From Thermoplasmatales archaeon (GTDB taxonomy: Archaea > Thermoplasmatota > Thermoplasmata > Thermoplasmatales > Thermoplasmataceae): a stretch of 64,000 nucleotides of DNA. The stretch covers positions 160,996-224,995 of the forward strand of contig DAIDBH010000017.1 of the NCBI GenBank assembly GCA_027310185.1. The letters run 5' to 3'. Both the position numbers and the translations under genes were made by a program. The stretch's first letter is position 1. Each line of letters starts with the position of its first letter. The notes beneath the pieces are model-generated. The model ran no database searches. It saw nothing but the letters and a program-made list of their open reading frames with translations, and was not told the DNA's origin. Positions 16,295 to 46,771 of the stretch are shown piece by piece.

Positions 16295-17452
16295 ATGAAG
16301 ACCATAGCAATTGTTGGAGGTGGGAGCGGTGGAATGAGCGCTGCCAACCATCTTGCGTATAAATTGAGGGACAGAGTAAAAAGTGGAGACGTTAAGATTA
16401 TGCTAATTGAAGGGAGCCAGCAGCATTTTTATCAGCCAGGATTCCTTGAAATACCTTTTGATTTGATGACGCCTGCATCTACACATAAGCCCATTTCAAG
16501 AATGGTGGCAGATGGAGTGACTGTTGTTCAGGAATTTGCCACTGAAGTTGATCTGAAAAACAGGGTTATAAAAACAGAGAAACAGAAAATAAGCTATGAT
16601 TATATAGTTCTGGCAACCGGTGCAAGGTATGACTATGAATCCATACCTGGCCTTAAGGAGGGGACGGATAATTTCTATAGCCTTGAAAACGCCGTATCCC
16701 TGAAGAAAAAGCTGAACAGCTTCAAGGGCGGACGCGTCGTAGTTGGGGTAGCTTCCATGCCTTACAAATGCACTCCTGCCCCTCTCGAAGCTGTTTTCAT
16801 GCTGAATGATTATTTTACCAGAAGGGGTATAAGGGATAAGGTGGAAATTGAATATGTATACCCAATGCCCATGGCTTTCCCGGATAAGGGAATATCAGAC
16901 GCTGCCCTGAAGATGTTCGAAGAGAGAGGGATAAAGAGTAGTCTTGGATTTCAGTTGAAATCAGTTGATACAAAAACAAGGGAACTTATATCGAAGAATG
17001 ATGAAAAAATAGGTTACGATCTGGCTCTAGTAGTACCCCCTCACAGAGGAAACAGGCTTATGGAAAAATCAGAAGTGGTAGACCAGATGGGATGGATAAA
17101 TGTCGATGGTTATACGCTTAACATCAAGGGATACGAGAACGCCTTTGCCATTGGGGATTCAACAAACCTGCAGGTCTCTAAGGCAGGATCGGTTGCAGAT
17201 GCAGAGGCAATTGTTGTTTCTGAAAGGATTTTCCAGTCAATGGATGGGGAAGAGCCTGTTACTACCTATGATGGCACTGGAGGTGCCCTTATGCTCACAG
17301 GCATGGGAAAGGCCTCGATGATAACATCAGATTATTCTCACAGACCTGTAATGATGCCAGAAAGTTACTCATTCTACTGGTTAAAACTGATCTATAACAA
17401 TGTGTACTGGAACATGACCGCAAGACCGGTACTTAATGGGGTGATTGAATGA
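16295..17452 (+). CDS. sqr: Sulfide:quinone oxidoreductase-like flavoprotein (type III-like; only one Cys)
   Basis: GGGSGG FAD motif, HFYQPG, VLATGA, YKCTPAPLE, AIGD...SKAGS; the C-terminal Cys position reads Ala. Confidence 0.75.
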   Translation: MKTIAIVGGGSGGMSAANHLAYKLRDRVKSGDVKIMLIEGSQQHFYQPGFLEIPFDLMTPASTHKPISRMVADGVTVVQEFATEVDLKNRVIKTEKQKISYDYIVLATGARYDYESIPGLKEGTDNFYSLENAVSLKKKLNSFKGGRVVVGVASMPYKCTPAPLEAVFMLNDYFTRRGIRDKVEIEYVYPMPMAFPDKGISDAALKMFEERGIKSSLGFQLKSVDTKTRELISKNDEKIGYDLALVVPPHRGNRLMEKSEVVDQMGWINVDGYTLNIKGYENAFAIGDSTNLQVSKAGSVADAEAIVVSERIFQSMDGEEPVTTYDGTGGALMLTGMGKASMITSDYSHRPVMMPESYSFYWLKLIYNNVYWNMTARPVLNGVIE

Positions 17453-17898
17453 GCACAGATATAATGGAATTACTGAATAAAAAACTTGAGGACCCTGAAT
17501 CCAGAAAGTCCGCCGAATATATCCTTGATAATATTGGGACCGTTACTGGTTTGATGGAATGGATCAAGACCATGGAAGACACGGGTATGGCAGAATCGCT
17601 CAAAGGCTTGATATATCTCTTAGCCAATTTGCGTGGAGTCCTTACTGATGACATGCTTAATGGTATTTCTGCGATCCTGAACTCCCTGCTGGAAATTCTA
17701 TCAAAAGTTTCGGATCCACATGTGGTTGATGGTGTCGTTGCACTTCTCGATGGTATTTCTTCAGGAAAACTATCAAAAGAGCCAAAAATTCATGGAACCT
17801 TAAGCTTGTTGAGTGAACTGAAGGACCCGCAGGTGGAAGCTGGGCTTGCAGTTGCAATAAATGTATTAAAGGGCCTTGGAAAAGTAGGTAAGAATTAA
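17449..17898 (+). CDS. DUF1641-family protein
   Basis: C-terminal LLSELKDPQVEAGLAVAINVLKGLGK motif; overlaps the sqr stop codon (ATGA), the usual SQR-DUF1641 pairing. Confidence 0.8.
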   Translation: MSTDIMELLNKKLEDPESRKSAEYILDNIGTVTGLMEWIKTMEDTGMAESLKGLIYLLANLRGVLTDDMLNGISAILNSLLEILSKVSDPHVVDGVVALLDGISSGKLSKEPKIHGTLSLLSELKDPQVEAGLAVAINVLKGLGKVGKN

Positions 17899-17923
17899 TT
17901 ATATATCCAAAGTTTATTTTTTT

Positions 17924-18271
17924 TTAATTTTTACATCTTAAATGTTCCTGAATACCATTCAGTTTACTGAGTTCTGAAGAAGTATCAGGAAGAGAATTTA
18001 TGATATTCTTTAGGAGTGGAAGTTTTTCTGGATTAACTGAATAATAGACCCACTGTGCATGCTTCCTTTCCCTTACAAGACCTGCAGACCTCATTTTTGC
18101 AAGATGTTGTGAAACATTTGATTGTGATAAATCTAGAATGGCGGTCAACTCACAAACACATAGCTCCTGCTGATTTATTAATGAAAGTATATGCAGCCGG
18201 TTAGGATCTCCGAGAATCTTCATAATGTTAGCCACGGATGATATGTCGGACCTTATCTGATCCTGCATCAT
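17924..18271 (-). CDS. ArsR/SmtB-family regulator
   Basis: LGDPNRLHIL, ELCVCEL, SQSNVSQHL, WVYYS. Confidence 0.9.
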   Translation of the reverse strand: MMQDQIRSDISSVANIMKILGDPNRLHILSLINQQELCVCELTAILDLSQSNVSQHLAKMRSAGLVRERKHAQWVYYSVNPEKLPLLKNIINSLPDTSSELSKLNGIQEHLRCKN

Positions 18272-18272
18272 G

Positions 18273-18893
18273 TTACTGAATCACGTCCTTGAATATAATA
18301 TCCGTTCTTATTCCTTTATTGGCGTAGGGTACCTCCTTCCATGAGTACTCTATTCTTGATGAATGATAGTGCTCCTCTGGCCTGGTTTTTAAAAGTACAT
18401 TGCTTACCCAATCATCCTGTAAAGCTTTCAGGTTGTCAAGTTTTCCTGGTAATTCGTCTGCTTGAGCTAAGCTTAGTGAAGATTCTAATTCTATTATATC
18501 CTTATTAAAAAACCCCGCCTCTTCCTTTACTTCCACAGTTTCACCGGTCGAAATCCTTTGAACTATGTACCATACGCCTTCCTGGTTTCTCACATCCTGT
18601 GTCCCAAATCTAACCCTTGCGCCAGTAAGGTAGGATGCTGCATCTCCAAGACATGGGCTATTCCTTGAAATTGCCCTTAGGTCTGTTCTGTCAACTATAT
18701 AATCAGAGAACAGGGACTTTAATGCAACTGACAGTGCATATGCTCCTCTGTAGAGACCATCACAAGCATGTCCATGGAACTTGACAAGATCTTCAAACCC
18801 TATATCCTTGGGACTTTTTGAATACCTACCGTGACTGGATTCTGTATCCAGAACTTTGAATGATGGCATATTATTTTCATACATCAATCCCAC
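18273..18893 (-). CDS. FmdE-family metal-binding protein
   Basis: KFHGHACDGL and SPCLGDAASYLTG, the His-Gly-His-x-Cys...Cys-x-x-Asp pattern of FmdE. Confidence 0.8.
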   Translation of the reverse strand: MGLMYENNMPSFKVLDTESSHGRYSKSPKDIGFEDLVKFHGHACDGLYRGAYALSVALKSLFSDYIVDRTDLRAISRNSPCLGDAASYLTGARVRFGTQDVRNQEGVWYIVQRISTGETVEVKEEAGFFNKDIIELESSLSLAQADELPGKLDNLKALQDDWVSNVLLKTRPEEHYHSSRIEYSWKEVPYANKGIRTDIIFKDVIQ

Positions 18894-18899
18894 CTTTGC

Positions 18900-19259
18900 T
18901 CAGAAAGATATTACCGTATATCCTTCAACTGCATATCTGGAAAAGGCATCTCTTGCGAATTCTAGATTTATACCATTGCTGGAAAATATATCTTCCATGT
19001 TCCAGTTCTTTACCTGGTTTGAACATGCTTCTACTATAATTCCTGCCTCCCTCAACTCCTTTATTATATCCAATATTTCGATGTTATCCTGCCCTCTTTC
19101 AAGTGCCCTGACACCGCCTGTGAAAAGGAATACTTCCACTCGTTCTATACCATTTTGCTTCTTGGCTTCATCAATCCTCAGTGCCACATGAAGGCCTGCC
19201 ATTATTTTCGCTCTCTGATCCAGTCCTGAATTTATTACTATTGCTAGTTTTGCTCCCAT
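18900..19259 (-). CDS. DsrE/DsrF-like sulfur-relay protein
   Basis: VEVFLFTGGV, VEACSNQ (conserved Cys) and C-terminal GYTVISF. Confidence 0.75.
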   Translation of the reverse strand: MGAKLAIVINSGLDQRAKIMAGLHVALRIDEAKKQNGIERVEVFLFTGGVRALERGQDNIEILDIIKELREAGIIVEACSNQVKNWNMEDIFSSNGINLEFARDAFSRYAVEGYTVISF

Positions 19260-19270
19260 TATATTACCTT

Positions 19271-19294
19271 ATGAGTATATGCTAATATACTTAT
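19271..19294. promoter_or_regulatory. 10-4-10 inverted repeat, candidate ArsR operator
   Basis: ATGAGTATAT-GCTA-ATATACTTAT (9 of 10 pairs), 12-35 nt upstream of the dsrE-fmdE-arsR start. Confidence 0.55.
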
Positions 19295-19399
19295 TTAACT
19301 CATCGTACAACATGGTGAATATTGTTGCTGACTTCCTGTGCAGTATAGATATTGTTTAAATTACAGTAAATTTAACAATGTAACTTAGATTATATCCAT

Positions 19400-44446: not shown

Positions 44447-45751
44447 TTAGAGAATGATAAAACTTTCCAGATATAGTGTCATCAATGTGATGAACAGGAC
44501 AGGAATGCCAACTATAAGACCCAGTTTCATATATTCAACTGTATTGATTTTGATCTTTGCCTTGCGATCTAGCATGTATAGCCATACCAGGGTTGCCAGA
44601 GAGCCAATTGGTGTGAACTTTGGCCCAATATCGTTACCAATTGCGTTTGTCAGTAGAATGATACCTGATATATGAAGGTGCTGCAATGTAAGATCGCCCA
44701 GCAAAACAGATGGTAGATTATTCATTATGGAAGCTGTAAGTGCAAACATGAATCCTGTCATCACAAAATTCATACCGAATGGGAATGACTGGAAATATCC
44801 AACTGCCTTTGCCATGTAAAAAACCATTCCATTTGTTGCGAGTGCGTAAACTACTATATACATACCGAGAGAAAAGAGGATGATCTGCCATGGTGCTTCT
44901 TTTACAGGTTTGACATAATCAATCTTTTTGCCTTTCCTGGCAAGAAGCAACATGAAAACTGCTGCAGGCATGGCCACTATCGAAACAGGAATGTTGTAAA
45001 TTCCACCCACTGAATAAAGTACCACGAGACTGATGATTACCGGGAAAAAAAGCTTAAAAATTACCGGGTCCTTGATATCTTCATTCCTGAACTCAATTTT
45101 TTCTGGAATTTTTGCAGGTATTGACTTTCTAAAATAAAGTGAGAGGAACAGGAGACTTGCAATTATGCTCACCAGATCAGGAATTATCATTATCTCCATA
45201 TAGGGAAAGAAATCTATTCCAAAGTATGTGGCTGCTATAATATTTACAAGGTTGCTTACCAGAAGAGGTATGCTGGCGGAATCTGCTATGAAGCCAACTG
45301 CCATTATATAGGCAAATATAGCTTTCTTATCGAGTCCGATCCTGTACAGAAGTGCCACTATCACAGGTGTTAACACAAGCGCAGTGCCATCATTGGCAAA
45401 AAAAGCGGATATAAAAGCACCCACAAGGATGACCAGTACGAATAGTCTTTTTCCGGACCCTCCTGAATAATTAAGGATCTTTGTCGCAAGATATTCAAAA
45501 ACGCCAGCTTCATCGAATACCAGTGCAATTATCACAACAGATACAAAAGTCAGGGTTGCGTTCCAGACAATCGATACAACATTGTAGAAATCCACAAGTG
45601 TTGTGAAGCCTGCCAGAACTGTTATAATTGCTCCTATTGATGCAGAATATCCTATTCCAAGACCCTTTGGTTTGTATATCACCAGGAAAAGTGAAAATAT
45701 GAATATCGCGAGTGTTGCGATGAAAAAGTAATTATTCAAACGCCAGTTCAC
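44447..45751 (-). CDS. arsB: Arsenite efflux pump ArsB
   Basis: KPKGLGIGYSA, WNATLTF, FANDGTALVLTP, SNLVNII, MNNLPS, GPKFTPIGSLAT. Confidence 0.93.
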   Translation of the reverse strand: MNWRLNNYFFIATLAIFIFSLFLVIYKPKGLGIGYSASIGAIITVLAGFTTLVDFYNVVSIVWNATLTFVSVVIIALVFDEAGVFEYLATKILNYSGGSGKRLFVLVILVGAFISAFFANDGTALVLTPVIVALLYRIGLDKKAIFAYIMAVGFIADSASIPLLVSNLVNIIAATYFGIDFFPYMEIMIIPDLVSIIASLLFLSLYFRKSIPAKIPEKIEFRNEDIKDPVIFKLFFPVIISLVVLYSVGGIYNIPVSIVAMPAAVFMLLLARKGKKIDYVKPVKEAPWQIILFSLGMYIVVYALATNGMVFYMAKAVGYFQSFPFGMNFVMTGFMFALTASIMNNLPSVLLGDLTLQHLHISGIILLTNAIGNDIGPKFTPIGSLATLVWLYMLDRKAKIKINTVEYMKLGLIVGIPVLFITLMTLYLESFIIL

Positions 45752-46130
45752 TTACCTTTCTTTCTATCTCATCCCTTATCTTCCTTACCTTCTCGATATC
45801 CTGGTTCTTTGGATCATCCAGTCCCCAGTCCACTACCTTCTTTTTCATGGCCCTGGCCAGTGGTGCCGGGCATGACTCCTCAACTGAGCAACCCATTATA
45901 ACAATCAAATCGGCATTGTCAATCATTTCCCTGGAGAGGACCCTTGGATTCCCTGTGTCAATTGGTACACCCTTTTCTTCCATAACTTTCATTACTACCG
46001 GATTGACTTCCCCTGCTGGAACTGTACCTGCGCTTTCGCAGTTTAGTCCCATATTCTTACCAAAGGCCTCCGCCATCTTGCTTCTTCCCGCATTTTCAAC
46101 ACATAGAAATAGAATCTTATCATACTTCAT
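45732..46130 (-). CDS. arsC: Arsenate reductase, thioredoxin/LMW-PTP type
   Basis: FLCVENAGRS P-loop, distal Cys pair GCSVEESCP, WGLDDP. Confidence 0.88.
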   Translation of the reverse strand: MKYDKILFLCVENAGRSKMAEAFGKNMGLNCESAGTVPAGEVNPVVMKVMEEKGVPIDTGNPRVLSREMIDNADLIVIMGCSVEESCPAPLARAMKKKVVDWGLDDPKNQDIEKVRKIRDEIERKVSELAFE

Positions 46131-46464
46131 TTATCAGCATCTCCGGGTTAATATTGCTCAATGGCTTTGCGGTGTAATAAGACCACTTGCCTTCCTTTCT
46201 CCTGTTTATGAGTTTTGCATTGTATAGCTCCTTAATACACCCTGAGACGGTTGACTGTGGTATGCCTAGCAGATCAGAAATCTCACAGACACACAGTTCA
46301 GTTATGGACAGGGTGTGATAGATTTCAATTCTTTTCATGTCTGAAAGTGCTTTAGCCCTTTTTTCCAGTTCCTGAAAATAACCATTGCTGTGGTTCTTCC
46401 TCAAATTCACTTTAATCTTCGTTTTTGTTGCCATATCCATGGTTCTGCATTCTGATGCTGACAT
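46120..46464 (-). CDS. arsR: ArsR-family repressor of the ars operon
   Basis: KALSDMKRIEI, ELCVCEI, QSTVSG, GKWSYY; first gene of arsR-arsC-arsB. Confidence 0.85.
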   Translation of the reverse strand: MSASECRTMDMATKTKIKVNLRKNHSNGYFQELEKRAKALSDMKRIEIYHTLSITELCVCEISDLLGIPQSTVSGCIKELYNAKLINRRKEGKWSYYTAKPLSNINPEMLINEV

Positions 46465-46487: not shown

Positions 46488-46687
46488 AATCTGATATTTA
46501 TATGTGACCTGAAAATAGGTGAAAAGAGAAAAATCTTCACGACTGTATTATTTTGTTTGTAGTATAAGGATCATTGTTGAAAGATATAATTAATCAAACG
46601 GGTTGCGATGAAATGTTGGTAGGAGAGAATACCTATGGTTGATTATGTAAAGTTTATAGTGGTAAAAAATCCGAAAAGCTAGAAAAG

Positions 46688-46771
46688 CGCTGGGAGGGAG
46701 ATTCGAACTCCCGAGCTACAGGAGCACAAGCTTTCCAGACTTGCGCCTTACCAGGCTAGGCTATCCCAGCT
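46688..46771 (-). tRNA. tRNA-Ser (anticodon GGA), long variable arm, no encoded CCA
   Basis: Reverse strand GCTGGGA...TCCCAGC-G acceptor; anticodon arm CAAGT-CTGGAAA-GCTTG; T-arm GGGAG-TTCGAAT-CTCCC. Confidence 0.92.

Follow-up and report, generated by a model that had tools for sequence, protein, structure and literature searches.

Gene organization of the locus

We analyzed a 64,000-nucleotide stretch (64 kb) of a 1.88-Mb Thermoplasmatales genome (assembly GCA_027310185.1, contig DAIDBH010000017.1, positions 160,996 to 224,995), hereafter called the window, with a focus on three minus-strand genes that form one operon in the order dsrE-like, fmdE and arsR. As argued below, this trio probably is an ArsR-controlled accessory module of arsenic resistance that would be induced by As(III) and apply thiol or persulfide chemistry to arsenic. 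The first gene (18900-19259) encodes a DsrE-like protein of 119 amino acids with a single cysteine, C79, described here from its open reading frame (ORF), Pfam and Foldseek comparison of an AlphaFold2 (AF2) model. The second, fmdE (18273-18893), was assigned by Pfam and encodes 206 amino acids from a GTG start, with a site H40/H42/C44/C81 recognized by homology to the structures of Axelrod 2010 (PMC2954224). The last gene, arsR (17924-18271), was identified from its ORF, Pfam/NCBIfam and alignment; its product of 115 amino acids carries the motif ELC38VC40EL and a further cysteine, C113.

The genes are separated by 6 nt (dsrE-fmdE) and 1 nt (fmdE-arsR). Since identical database proteins have 203 amino acids, the real start of FmdE is probably the ATG at 18884, which widens the first gap to 15 nt. 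A convergent DUF1641 gene ends at 17898, 25 nt from the arsR stop, and the T-rich gap between the two (17899-17923) is probably a bidirectional terminator region. An annotation made earlier from the letters alone (the initial annotation) had described three near-abutting genes with this 25-nt gap, a one-cysteine DsrE-like protein, a His/Cys site in FmdE and an ELCVCEL motif in ArsR; its coordinates and gaps agree with ours and all three protein features are seen in the translations. Judged by their relatives the three are real genes and no chance ORFs, because orthologs of 45-100% identity occur in more than 100 protein clusters each and the gene order is the same in all nine related genomes that carry fmdE.

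Conservation of the trio and links to ars operons

The surroundings of fmdE were compared in 78 loci from species-representative genomes, using hidden Markov models built from recurrent neighbour clusters and named via Pfam and NCBIfam. The survey comprises 23 loci from Thermoplasmatota (group A), 23 from acidophilic Bacillota (group B) and 32 diderm loci (group C). Within group A, ArsR is encoded at every locus and the DsrE-like protein at 19 of the 23, the remaining four contigs ending at fmdE; the trio is intact in all related Thermoplasmatota loci whose contig covers the region. Eight loci of this group have a divergent arsB and 11 a convergent pair of genes for a sulfide:quinone oxidoreductase (SQR)-like protein and DUF1641, and dsrE-fmdE-arsR is kept both in relatives with an adjacent SQR and in those without.

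The bacterial loci embed the same genes in extended ars operons. FmdE homologs of 52-61% identity are found in Sulfobacillus, Alicyclobacillus and Ferroacidibacillus, and all 23 loci of group B encode the DsrE-like protein, together with ArsA (18 loci), ArsD (17) and ArsB (16). Any of these three Ars proteins occurs in 20 of the 23, and the dsrE-fmdE pair is internal to arsR-arsD-arsA-arsB operons in 20 of the 23. The layout in S. acidophilus and A. curvatus is arsR-CMD-arsD-arsA-arsA-[DsrE-like]-[FmdE], followed by OsmC or arsR, then arsB, and finally either CoADR or ArsC and TrxR. Plasmid p1 of Alicyclobacillus sp. SO9 (NZ_CP066340, 4803-13281), annotated independently in RefSeq, agrees with the layout of group B: next to IS1380 its genes run FAD oxidoreductase, CMD, arsD, arsA, arsA, hypothetical (the DsrE-like protein), FmdE family, ArsR, arsenic transporter, ArsC, ArsC and trxB. 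The whole dsrE-fmdE ars operon of this strain is thus plasmid-borne and adjoins an IS1380 transposase gene; the plasmid also has an ArsR-CDF pair nearby. A pump gene belongs to the presumed regulon in relatives, namely in the eight archaeal loci with twin operators (see below) and in 20 of the 23 Bacillota loci, but not in the window itself. Taken together, the gene neighbourhoods strongly support a link of the trio to arsenic, and the initial annotation's view of one conserved, arsenic-linked unit is borne out by the constant order in nine of nine genomes, by the operator before divergent arsB genes and by the pair inside the arsRDAB operons of Sulfobacillus and Alicyclobacillus.

A candidate ArsR operator shared with arsB

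The dsrE ATG is preceded, at a distance of 15-32 nt, by a perfect palindrome, AGTATAT-TAGC-ATATACT (19274-19291). It comes just after the TATA-box-like sequence TTAAATA (19292-19298, minus strand), which may act as a promoter element. The palindrome has no other perfect match in the window. It is kept at the same position in 18 of the 19 archaeal loci that cover the region, and TTTAATT stands at the place equivalent to TTAAATA in at least 17 related loci. All eight loci with a divergent arsB have a second copy 78 nt off, beside the arsB start, and in these genomes the arsB locus has no ArsR other than that of the trio. From sequence and conservation we regard AGTATAT-N4-ATATACT as a candidate ArsR operator. 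Because the palindrome precedes both dsrE and arsB in all eight arsB loci, we read ArsR as an arsenic-operon repressor; the twin operators are the strongest evidence for this assignment, and arsR is likely autoregulatory.

No wider regulon was seen in the genome of the window, where the core has one other perfect match (contig C18, 306010) and matches with one mismatch do not exceed the control count. That other match belongs to a long perfect palindrome, AAATAATGGTATATGTACATATACCATTATTT (C18:305995-306040), between two divergent, unrelated genes of unassigned function; it has the GTATAT-N4-ATATAC core but is a different, longer site. The palindrome was found neither at a separate arsR-arsC-arsB operon (44-46 kb) nor in the SQR region.

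ArsR scores 104 bits against the NCBIfam model for ArsR/SmtB metalloregulators (cut-off 55) and has a cysteine site of the As(III) type, both CVC cysteines being retained in all ArsR orthologs. A third cysteine that the initial annotation had not mentioned, C113 in the C-terminal tail, is kept in nearly all full-length orthologs, and the arrangement C38/C40/C113 fits one three-thiolate As(III) site. The CVC motif had been assigned to the As(III)/Sb(III)-sensing type to the exclusion of persulfide sensing. Conservation of both cysteines agrees with the first part; the exclusion was too strong given the conserved C113. By score ArsR is no member of the BigR family (50 bits, cut-off 155), but its helix-3 and C-terminal cysteines are both conserved and it is weakly similar to SqrR/BigR structures, in alignments that end short of the C-terminal cysteine. 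Its sequence has neither the CadC-type N-terminal cysteine nor an alpha-5 His/Asp site.

FmdE and its thiol-bearing partners

FmdE belongs to Pfam family PF02663 (E=7e-15, 55.7 bits, cut-off 22.9). The motif FHGH42xC44 and the distal C81 make up a His2Cys2 site, whose residues H40, H42, C44 and C81 are invariant in all 35 FmdE sequences compared, drawn from three phylogenetic groups; D16, T17, D45, D68-R69-T70, D84, R93 and D198 are invariant in the same set. The AF2 model has a predicted local distance difference test (pLDDT) of 93.8, and its Foldseek matches are only the FmdE crystal structures 3d00, 2glz and 2gvi. These structures were recovered by fold search only; sequence searches of the PDB with FmdE, single or as a profile, gave no significant match. 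We know of no function ever assigned to FmdE (PF02663), although structures have existed since 2006. In the crystals the FHGHxC motif and a distal cysteine form a solvent-exposed tetrahedral His2Cys2 site with Zn or Ni bound, and FmdE relatives are often encoded beside metal transporters, so that a metal-handling role was proposed (PMC2954224). The protein studied here is devoid of a zinc ribbon; its N-terminus adds a DTESSHGRY strand, and its C-terminus is extended by about 70 helical residues with no cysteine. In cytoplasmic FmdE proteins the cysteines nearly always number just two, and both are site ligands. None of the about 85 loci examined contains fmd/fwd genes. The subfamily is small, with 70 clusters at E<=1e-30 in a profile search of 1.84 billion representatives.

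More distant relatives occupy another kind of arsenic cluster. The FmdE proteins of group C (Acidobacteriota, Desulfobacterota, Verrucomicrobiota, Nitrospirota and others) are 35-44% identical, have a signal peptide and are not accompanied by a DsrE-like gene. They lie in ArsR-Acr3-thioredoxin-DsbD-Trx3(ArsE family)-FmdE-ArsP_1 clusters; an ars-type gene (ArsR, ArsP_1 or Acr3) is found within 6 kb of fmdE in 25 of the 32 loci, and ArsP_1 together with Trx3/ArsE in 22. Ten of 15 exported relatives have an extra C-terminal cysteine alongside other cysteines, which is ambiguous, as it could be a third arsenic ligand in cis or take part in a periplasmic disulfide.

FmdE also occurs in fusion proteins. 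Rhodanese is fused at either end, with loops CRSGNRS and CRSGQRS of the CX4R sulfurtransferase type, and further fusions join FmdE to thioredoxin or to an acetolactate-decarboxylase-like domain. The fusions that were looked up sit in ArsR-(Acr3)-Trx3-ArsP_1-[fusion]-ArsF-like-DsbD clusters. On Bacteroidota-like contigs (L095-L097; P0248, P0388 and P0407) FmdE is often fused to an alpha-acetolactate-decarboxylase-like (AALD) domain (PF03306); one triple fusion of 552 amino acids combines AALD, rhodanese and FmdE, and the fused gene directly follows an ArsP_1 permease gene. Across lineages, FmdE is thus paired with domains that carry a reactive cysteine and belong to three folds unrelated to each other, DsrE-like, rhodanese and thioredoxin. 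Two of these folds are classical persulfide carriers. The sulfur or thiol character that the initial annotation had ascribed to the locus is supported by FmdE relatives that have rhodanese of the sulfurtransferase type, thioredoxins and TauE as fusion partners or neighbours; its term "thioarsenic" is still conjecture. S. acidophilus has another, divergent FmdE paralog of 212 amino acids just downstream of its ars operon, with TauE and an SQR-like flavoprotein encoded after it (L010, 12649-15562).

Published transcriptome data on Acidiplasma sp. YE-1 were considered as expression evidence and set aside. There, the level of an FmdE gene on sulfur, pyrite and arsenopyrite was 12- to 16-fold below that on Fe2+. 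On sulfur, this gene and two "peroxiredoxin" genes stood 12- to 57-fold below their Fe2+ level, and the paper gives a drop of over 14-fold for all of them on sulfur, pyrite and arsenopyrite (PMC12524180). The supplement places the FmdE gene (WMT55891) between genes for an IS3 transposase and an AMP-binding protein, a context that marks it as apparently a different FmdE gene.

The DsrE-like protein

The AF2 model of the DsrE-like protein has a pLDDT of 96.1. Foldseek matched it, at template modelling (TM) scores of about 0.7, to 2fb6 (BT1422), 1jx7 (YchN), 2pd2 (ST0148), 1l1s (MTH1491), 3pnx (a putative DsrE) and 2hy5_C (DsrH), and on these model comparisons we take the DsrE fold to be real. 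C79 is invariant in all 22 sequences compared, within the invariant motif ACSNQ, and in the model it stands where strand 75-79 passes into helix 80-85, the active-site position of the fold. A second invariant motif, EFARDAFSRYA, is C-terminal. The subfamily comprises 118 hits, all of at least 45% identity, and is found only in the two acidophile clades that hold cytoplasmic FmdE. Its genes are always neighbours of fmdE, in one variant divergently (dsrE <-> arsR-fmdE-tauE-CBS). FmdE is the constant partner; TusA, DsrC, DsrF/H and Hdr relay partners were absent from the Pfam-annotated gene lists and recurrent neighbour clusters examined. NCBIfam holds no model for either the DsrE-like or the FmdE protein.

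Neighbouring genes

The convergent neighbours of the trio are an overlapping pair of plus-strand genes, an SQR-like flavoprotein (16295-17452) and DUF1641 (17449-17898), assigned from ORFs and Pfam/NCBIfam. The flavoprotein has a single cysteine, C159 in YKC159TPAP; it does not contain the redox cysteine pair of type III SQR and scores 320 bits against the model of that type (NF049943), whose cut-off is 525. An adjacent SQR-like gene is present in 11 of the 23 archaeal and about three bacterial loci, and not in the other 12 archaeal and most bacterial loci. Among 41 relatives, an SQR ortholog of at least 52% identity occurs in eight of nine trio-bearing genomes and in one of 32 others (Fisher p=8e-7, for genomes that are not phylogenetically independent); in two trio-bearing genomes it lies on a different contig from the trio. 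No sign of co-regulation by the ArsR operator was found, there being no palindrome near SQR, DUF1641 or SDR in the window or the 23 archaeal loci. A link of the SQR-like pair to the module, at which the initial annotation had hinted, is favoured by adjacency and co-occurrence, and disfavoured by the convergent orientation, the missing operator and the unsystematic presence in bacteria; a functional link is possible. The operon on the SO9 plasmid opens with a distant SQR-like FAD oxidoreductase, 24% identical over its full length with Cys159 aligned. The genome of the window contains a second SQR-DUF1641 pair (C12:155061-156687).

The separate arsR-arsC(LMWP)-arsB operon of the window (44447-46464, minus strand) has its own CVC ArsR, the ArsC gene at 45732-46130 (minus strand) and the only ArsB of the genome. 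The trio had been called separate from this efflux operon. That holds in the window, where they are 26 kb apart, but not in evolution, as the trio makes up the regulatory part of the arsB locus in many relatives. Upstream of the second arsR, at a distance of about 220 nt, there is a gene for tRNA-Ser(GGA) (46687-46770, minus strand), which could be an integration hotspot for the arsR-arsC-arsB operon. An LMWP-type ArsC-like gene, scoring below cut-off, is present in eight of the nine trio-bearing relatives. In several archaeal relatives (L014, L015, L018-L020) a block of genes for an Lrp-type regulator, a long CMD/AhpD-like protein and a SLAC1/TehA-like anion channel flanks arsB-dsrE-fmdE-arsR; this block may be the anion-export arm of the same island. 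In the genome of the window it lies on another contig (C18:79886-82276).

Phylogeny of FmdE

In a maximum-likelihood tree of FmdE, the archaeal sequences are nested in those of acidophilic Bacillota (support 100/99 and 96/96), with the diderm sequences outside. This nesting suggests that the gene passed from bacteria to archaea within acid-mine communities. The FmdE of the window groups with other Thermoplasmata, apart from two sequences of its own genus (L035, Cuniculiplasma sp. SKW4, and L036). Since all archaeal copies fall inside Bacillota and the sequence of the window stands apart from its genus, the tree points to inter-domain transfer and to repeated transfer within archaea.

Proposed function and alternative explanations

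We propose that the trio is an accessory arsenic-resistance module under ArsR control. The firmer part, which we consider highly likely, is its membership in ars systems, known from comparison, together with an inferred role of ArsR as the arsenic switch. An ArsR homodimer would bind AGTATAT-N4-ATATACT, which separates the TATA-like box from the dsrE start, and keep dsrE-fmdE-arsR repressed; As(III) or Sb(III) on C38/C40, probably with C113, would release it. Many relatives would have a divergent arsB under the same operator, and in acidophilic Bacillota the pair would be transcribed within arsR-CMD-arsD-arsA-arsA-...-arsB operons. Only tentatively do we suggest, with more doubt than confidence, that FmdE and the DsrE-like protein make or break arsenic-sulfur bonds. 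FmdE would supply the solvent-exposed His2Cys2 site and the DsrE-like protein one reactive cysteine, as thiol or persulfide, and both could act jointly on arsenite through C44, C81 and C79. Two versions are conceivable, a transfer of sulfane sulfur that interconverts arsenite and monothioarsenate, which we favour, and a three-thiolate hand-over complex. With either one, less As(OH)3 would remain free and an exporter would be supplied (ArsB in this archaeon, and TauE, SLAC1-like or ArsP_1 elsewhere), and persulfide or sulfide by-products might be handled by the co-occurring SQR-like flavoprotein. The sulfane-sulfur version is speculative and is preferred because of the rhodanese/DsrE partners, the TauE/SQR-like neighbours and the analogy of monothioarsenate to thiosulfate, to which it is likened in the discussion of PMC6620896. 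In Thioalkalivibrio, genes for DsrE/F-like proteins and for rhodanese respond to As(III), with no roles assigned to them (PMC6620896).

Several observations weigh against this proposal. The only ArsB of the genome is 26 kb away from the trio, under a different ArsR and without the palindrome, and in S. thermosulfidooxidans and on a Sulfuricella plasmid the pair, or FmdE alone, occurs without ars genes. As(III) sites usually consist of three thiolates. The His2Cys2 arrangement is no classical As(III) site, and in crystallised relatives it is occupied by Zn or Ni (PMC2954224). The DsrE-like protein scores 22.0 bits against Pfam DsrE (PF02635), just below the gathering cut-off of 22.7 (its Alicyclobacillus ortholog reaches 20.9 bits), and the structures closest to its model are all of uncharacterised proteins; it is the modelled fold that suggests carriage of sulfane sulfur as a cysteine persulfide. 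FmdE being cytoplasmic in some lineages and periplasmic in others is a poor fit to one simple chaperone role. The co-occurrence with SQR is confounded by shared ancestry and synteny, and the conserved C113 leaves a thiol-switch reading of ArsR open.

The main rival is that the pair is a plain As(III) metallochaperone or buffer, in which C44/C81 and C79 form a three-thiolate site and hand arsenic over to ArsB/ArsA in the manner of ArsD, with no sulfane sulfur involved. The exact number of three cysteines across FmdE and the DsrE-like protein, the position of the Bacillota pair directly between arsA and arsB, and the metal-handling role proposed for FmdE relatives near metal transporters (PMC2954224) all suit this explanation. 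ArsD is already encoded in the same operons, however, and the diderm relatives are exported by signal peptides and would have no access to the cytoplasmic face of a pump; moreover, the recurrent rhodanese, TauE and SQR-like partners are left unaccounted for. We consider a plain chaperone unlikely.

A bolder extension of the arsenic-sulfur proposal, quite unlikely in our estimate, would make FmdE-family proteins in general sulfur-inserting "sulfurase" chaperones for metal or metalloid oxo-centres, acting on arsenite and monothioarsenate here and on Mo/W sulfido centres in methanogens. FmdE would receive sulfane sulfur from a persulfide carrier, DsrE-like here and rhodanese elsewhere, which would amount to enzymatic thio-arsenic detoxification; the product would leave by TauE, SLAC1-like or ArsP_1, and the one-cysteine SQR-like flavoprotein would supply or remove sulfur. 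The FmdE/FwdE of methanogens would then be the installer of the Mo/W sulfido ligand, similar to FdhD.

Turning to the sulfur side of the locus, the operon could instead serve the detoxification of reactive sulfur, with ArsR as a persulfide thiol switch (C38 or C40 with C113), the DsrE-like protein and FmdE working together with SQR-DUF1641, and the ars context secondary. The conserved C-terminal cysteine beside the helix-3 cysteines, the weak similarity of ArsR to the BigR model and the SqrR/BigR structures, and the adjacency and genome co-occurrence of SQR speak for it, as do TauE, CoA-disulfide-reductase (CoADR)-like and rhodanese neighbours that resemble cst/sqr operons. Against this stand the same operator before arsB in eight loci, the pair inside arsRDAB operons in 20 of the 23 Bacillota loci and the absence of an operator near SQR. 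In addition, ArsR falls far short of the BigR cut-off and both CVC cysteines are kept throughout its orthologs. On balance this alternative is improbable.

Two further explanations are very unlikely. A new thiol-based arsenate reductase, in which an As(V)-thioester on FmdE is resolved by the DsrE-like cysteine in place of ArsC, would profit from the many invariant Arg/Asp residues around two cysteines and from an electron supply suggested by a DsbD relay and by neighbouring thioredoxin, TrxR and CoADR genes, but was rejected: an ArsC-like gene co-occurs in eight of the nine relatives, a distribution that is not complementary, the genome of the window has ArsC (45732-46130), the SO9 plasmid operon has two arsC genes together with the pair, and the fused rhodanese is of the CX4R type, unlike the CX5R of Acr2-type reductases. 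Equally implausible is that the proteins are chaperones for soft metals in general (Zn/Ni/Cd/Cu), or shield metal cofactors from thiol-reactive stress, and merely travel along in resistance islands; Zn/Ni in FmdE crystals, the many FmdE genes by metal transporters (PMC2954224) and the ArsR-CDF pair on the Alicyclobacillus plasmid would agree with it, but the subfamily is found specifically with ArsA/B/D, Acr3 and ArsP, and ArsR does not have the CadC-type or alpha-5 metal sites.

The arsenic-resistance module proposed here would be of interest in several respects. Although ars operons are among the best-studied detoxification systems, two conserved genes in bioleaching and acid-mine organisms have stayed nameless and without assigned function. 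The module gives the FmdE family a testable job, and its predicted arsenic-inducible version, with two proteins and three cysteines, in the culturable Cuniculiplasma, Alicyclobacillus and Sulfobacillus is a direct handle on FmdE function. If arsenic-sulfur bond chemistry did prove to be its task, it would to our knowledge be the first dedicated thio-arsenic enzyme system and would bear on arsenic mobility in mine waters and on arsenopyrite biomining. As far as genome comparison goes, the case is also one of a resistance module passing from bacteria to archaea, and it defines a candidate operator for an archaeal ArsR.

Comparison with known systems

Neither the DsrE-like protein nor FmdE is mentioned in two reviews of ars gene content (PMC2963123, PMC6205960), and a full-text literature search for FmdE or DsrE with arsenic or ars returned nothing relevant and no paper on the module. 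The extended ars operons of acidophiles and Firmicutes (arsRDAB/arsRBC) share with our loci the CVC ArsR, ArsD/ArsA/ArsB in the unit of the bacterial relatives, and extra thiol-redox genes (CoADR-like, CMD/AhpD-like, OsmC, TrxR). They differ in that the ars gene sets described so far include neither the DsrE-like gene nor fmdE and that the module in the window is pump-less. An example of such operons is TnAtcArs of Acidithiobacillus caldus, with extra NADH-oxidase-like and CBS genes. ArsD, the As(III) metallochaperone of ArsA, is like the pair a small Cys-dependent accessory beside a pump that probably uses thiolates to handle As(III). Its fold is unrelated, however, and it co-exists with the pair in the same operons; here, two proteins provide His2Cys2 and one cysteine in trans, and distant relatives are periplasmic.

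The FmdE/FwdE proteins of formylmethanofuran dehydrogenase operons and the structures 2glz, 2gvi and 3d00 share with our FmdE the alpha+beta core and the His2Cys2 site made of FHGHxC and a distal cysteine. In contrast to those systems, fmd/fwd genes, methanogenesis and a treble-clef zinc finger are absent here, and the extra DTESSHGRY strand and the helical extension mark a subfamily specific to arsenic islands. Similarly, the DsrE/TusD/DsrE3 relay proteins have the same fold as the DsrE-like protein and an invariant cysteine at the strand-to-helix junction; the counterpart of C79 is Cys78 in DsrE/TusD. Unlike them, the DsrE-like protein falls below the Pfam cut-off, has FmdE as its partner instead of TusA, DsrC, DsrF/H or Hdr, and is structurally nearest to the YchN/BT1422/ST0148 type. 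The suoRSCT system of Synechocystis resembles the window in combining an arsenic-type ArsR and an SQR-like flavoprotein in one neighbourhood. That operon, whose ArsR-type repressor controls an SQR, is induced by sulfide or arsenite (cited in PMC6620896); the SQR-like gene of the window is convergent and has no operator, and its product has one cysteine and scores below the type III SQR cut-off.

Another related system is that of the ArsEFG/ArsP islands, thiol-relay islands reportedly treated by Chen, Zhang and Rosen in 2019, with genes that NCBIfam names ArsE (Trx3-like), ArsF and ArsG (DsbD-like). The distant FmdE relatives (35-44% identity) lie inside such islands, beside ArsP_1, Trx3/ArsE, ArsF-like and DsbD-like genes. 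The version in the window differs from them in being cytoplasmic, in having a DsrE-like protein instead of thioredoxin, rhodanese or DsbD, and in being tied to ArsB and not to ArsP_1. Measured against all these systems, the cytoplasmic DsrE-like/FmdE pair of acidophiles, its candidate operator in common with arsB, the co-occurrence with SQR, and rhodanese and thioredoxin fusions as apparently equivalent partners of FmdE are new.

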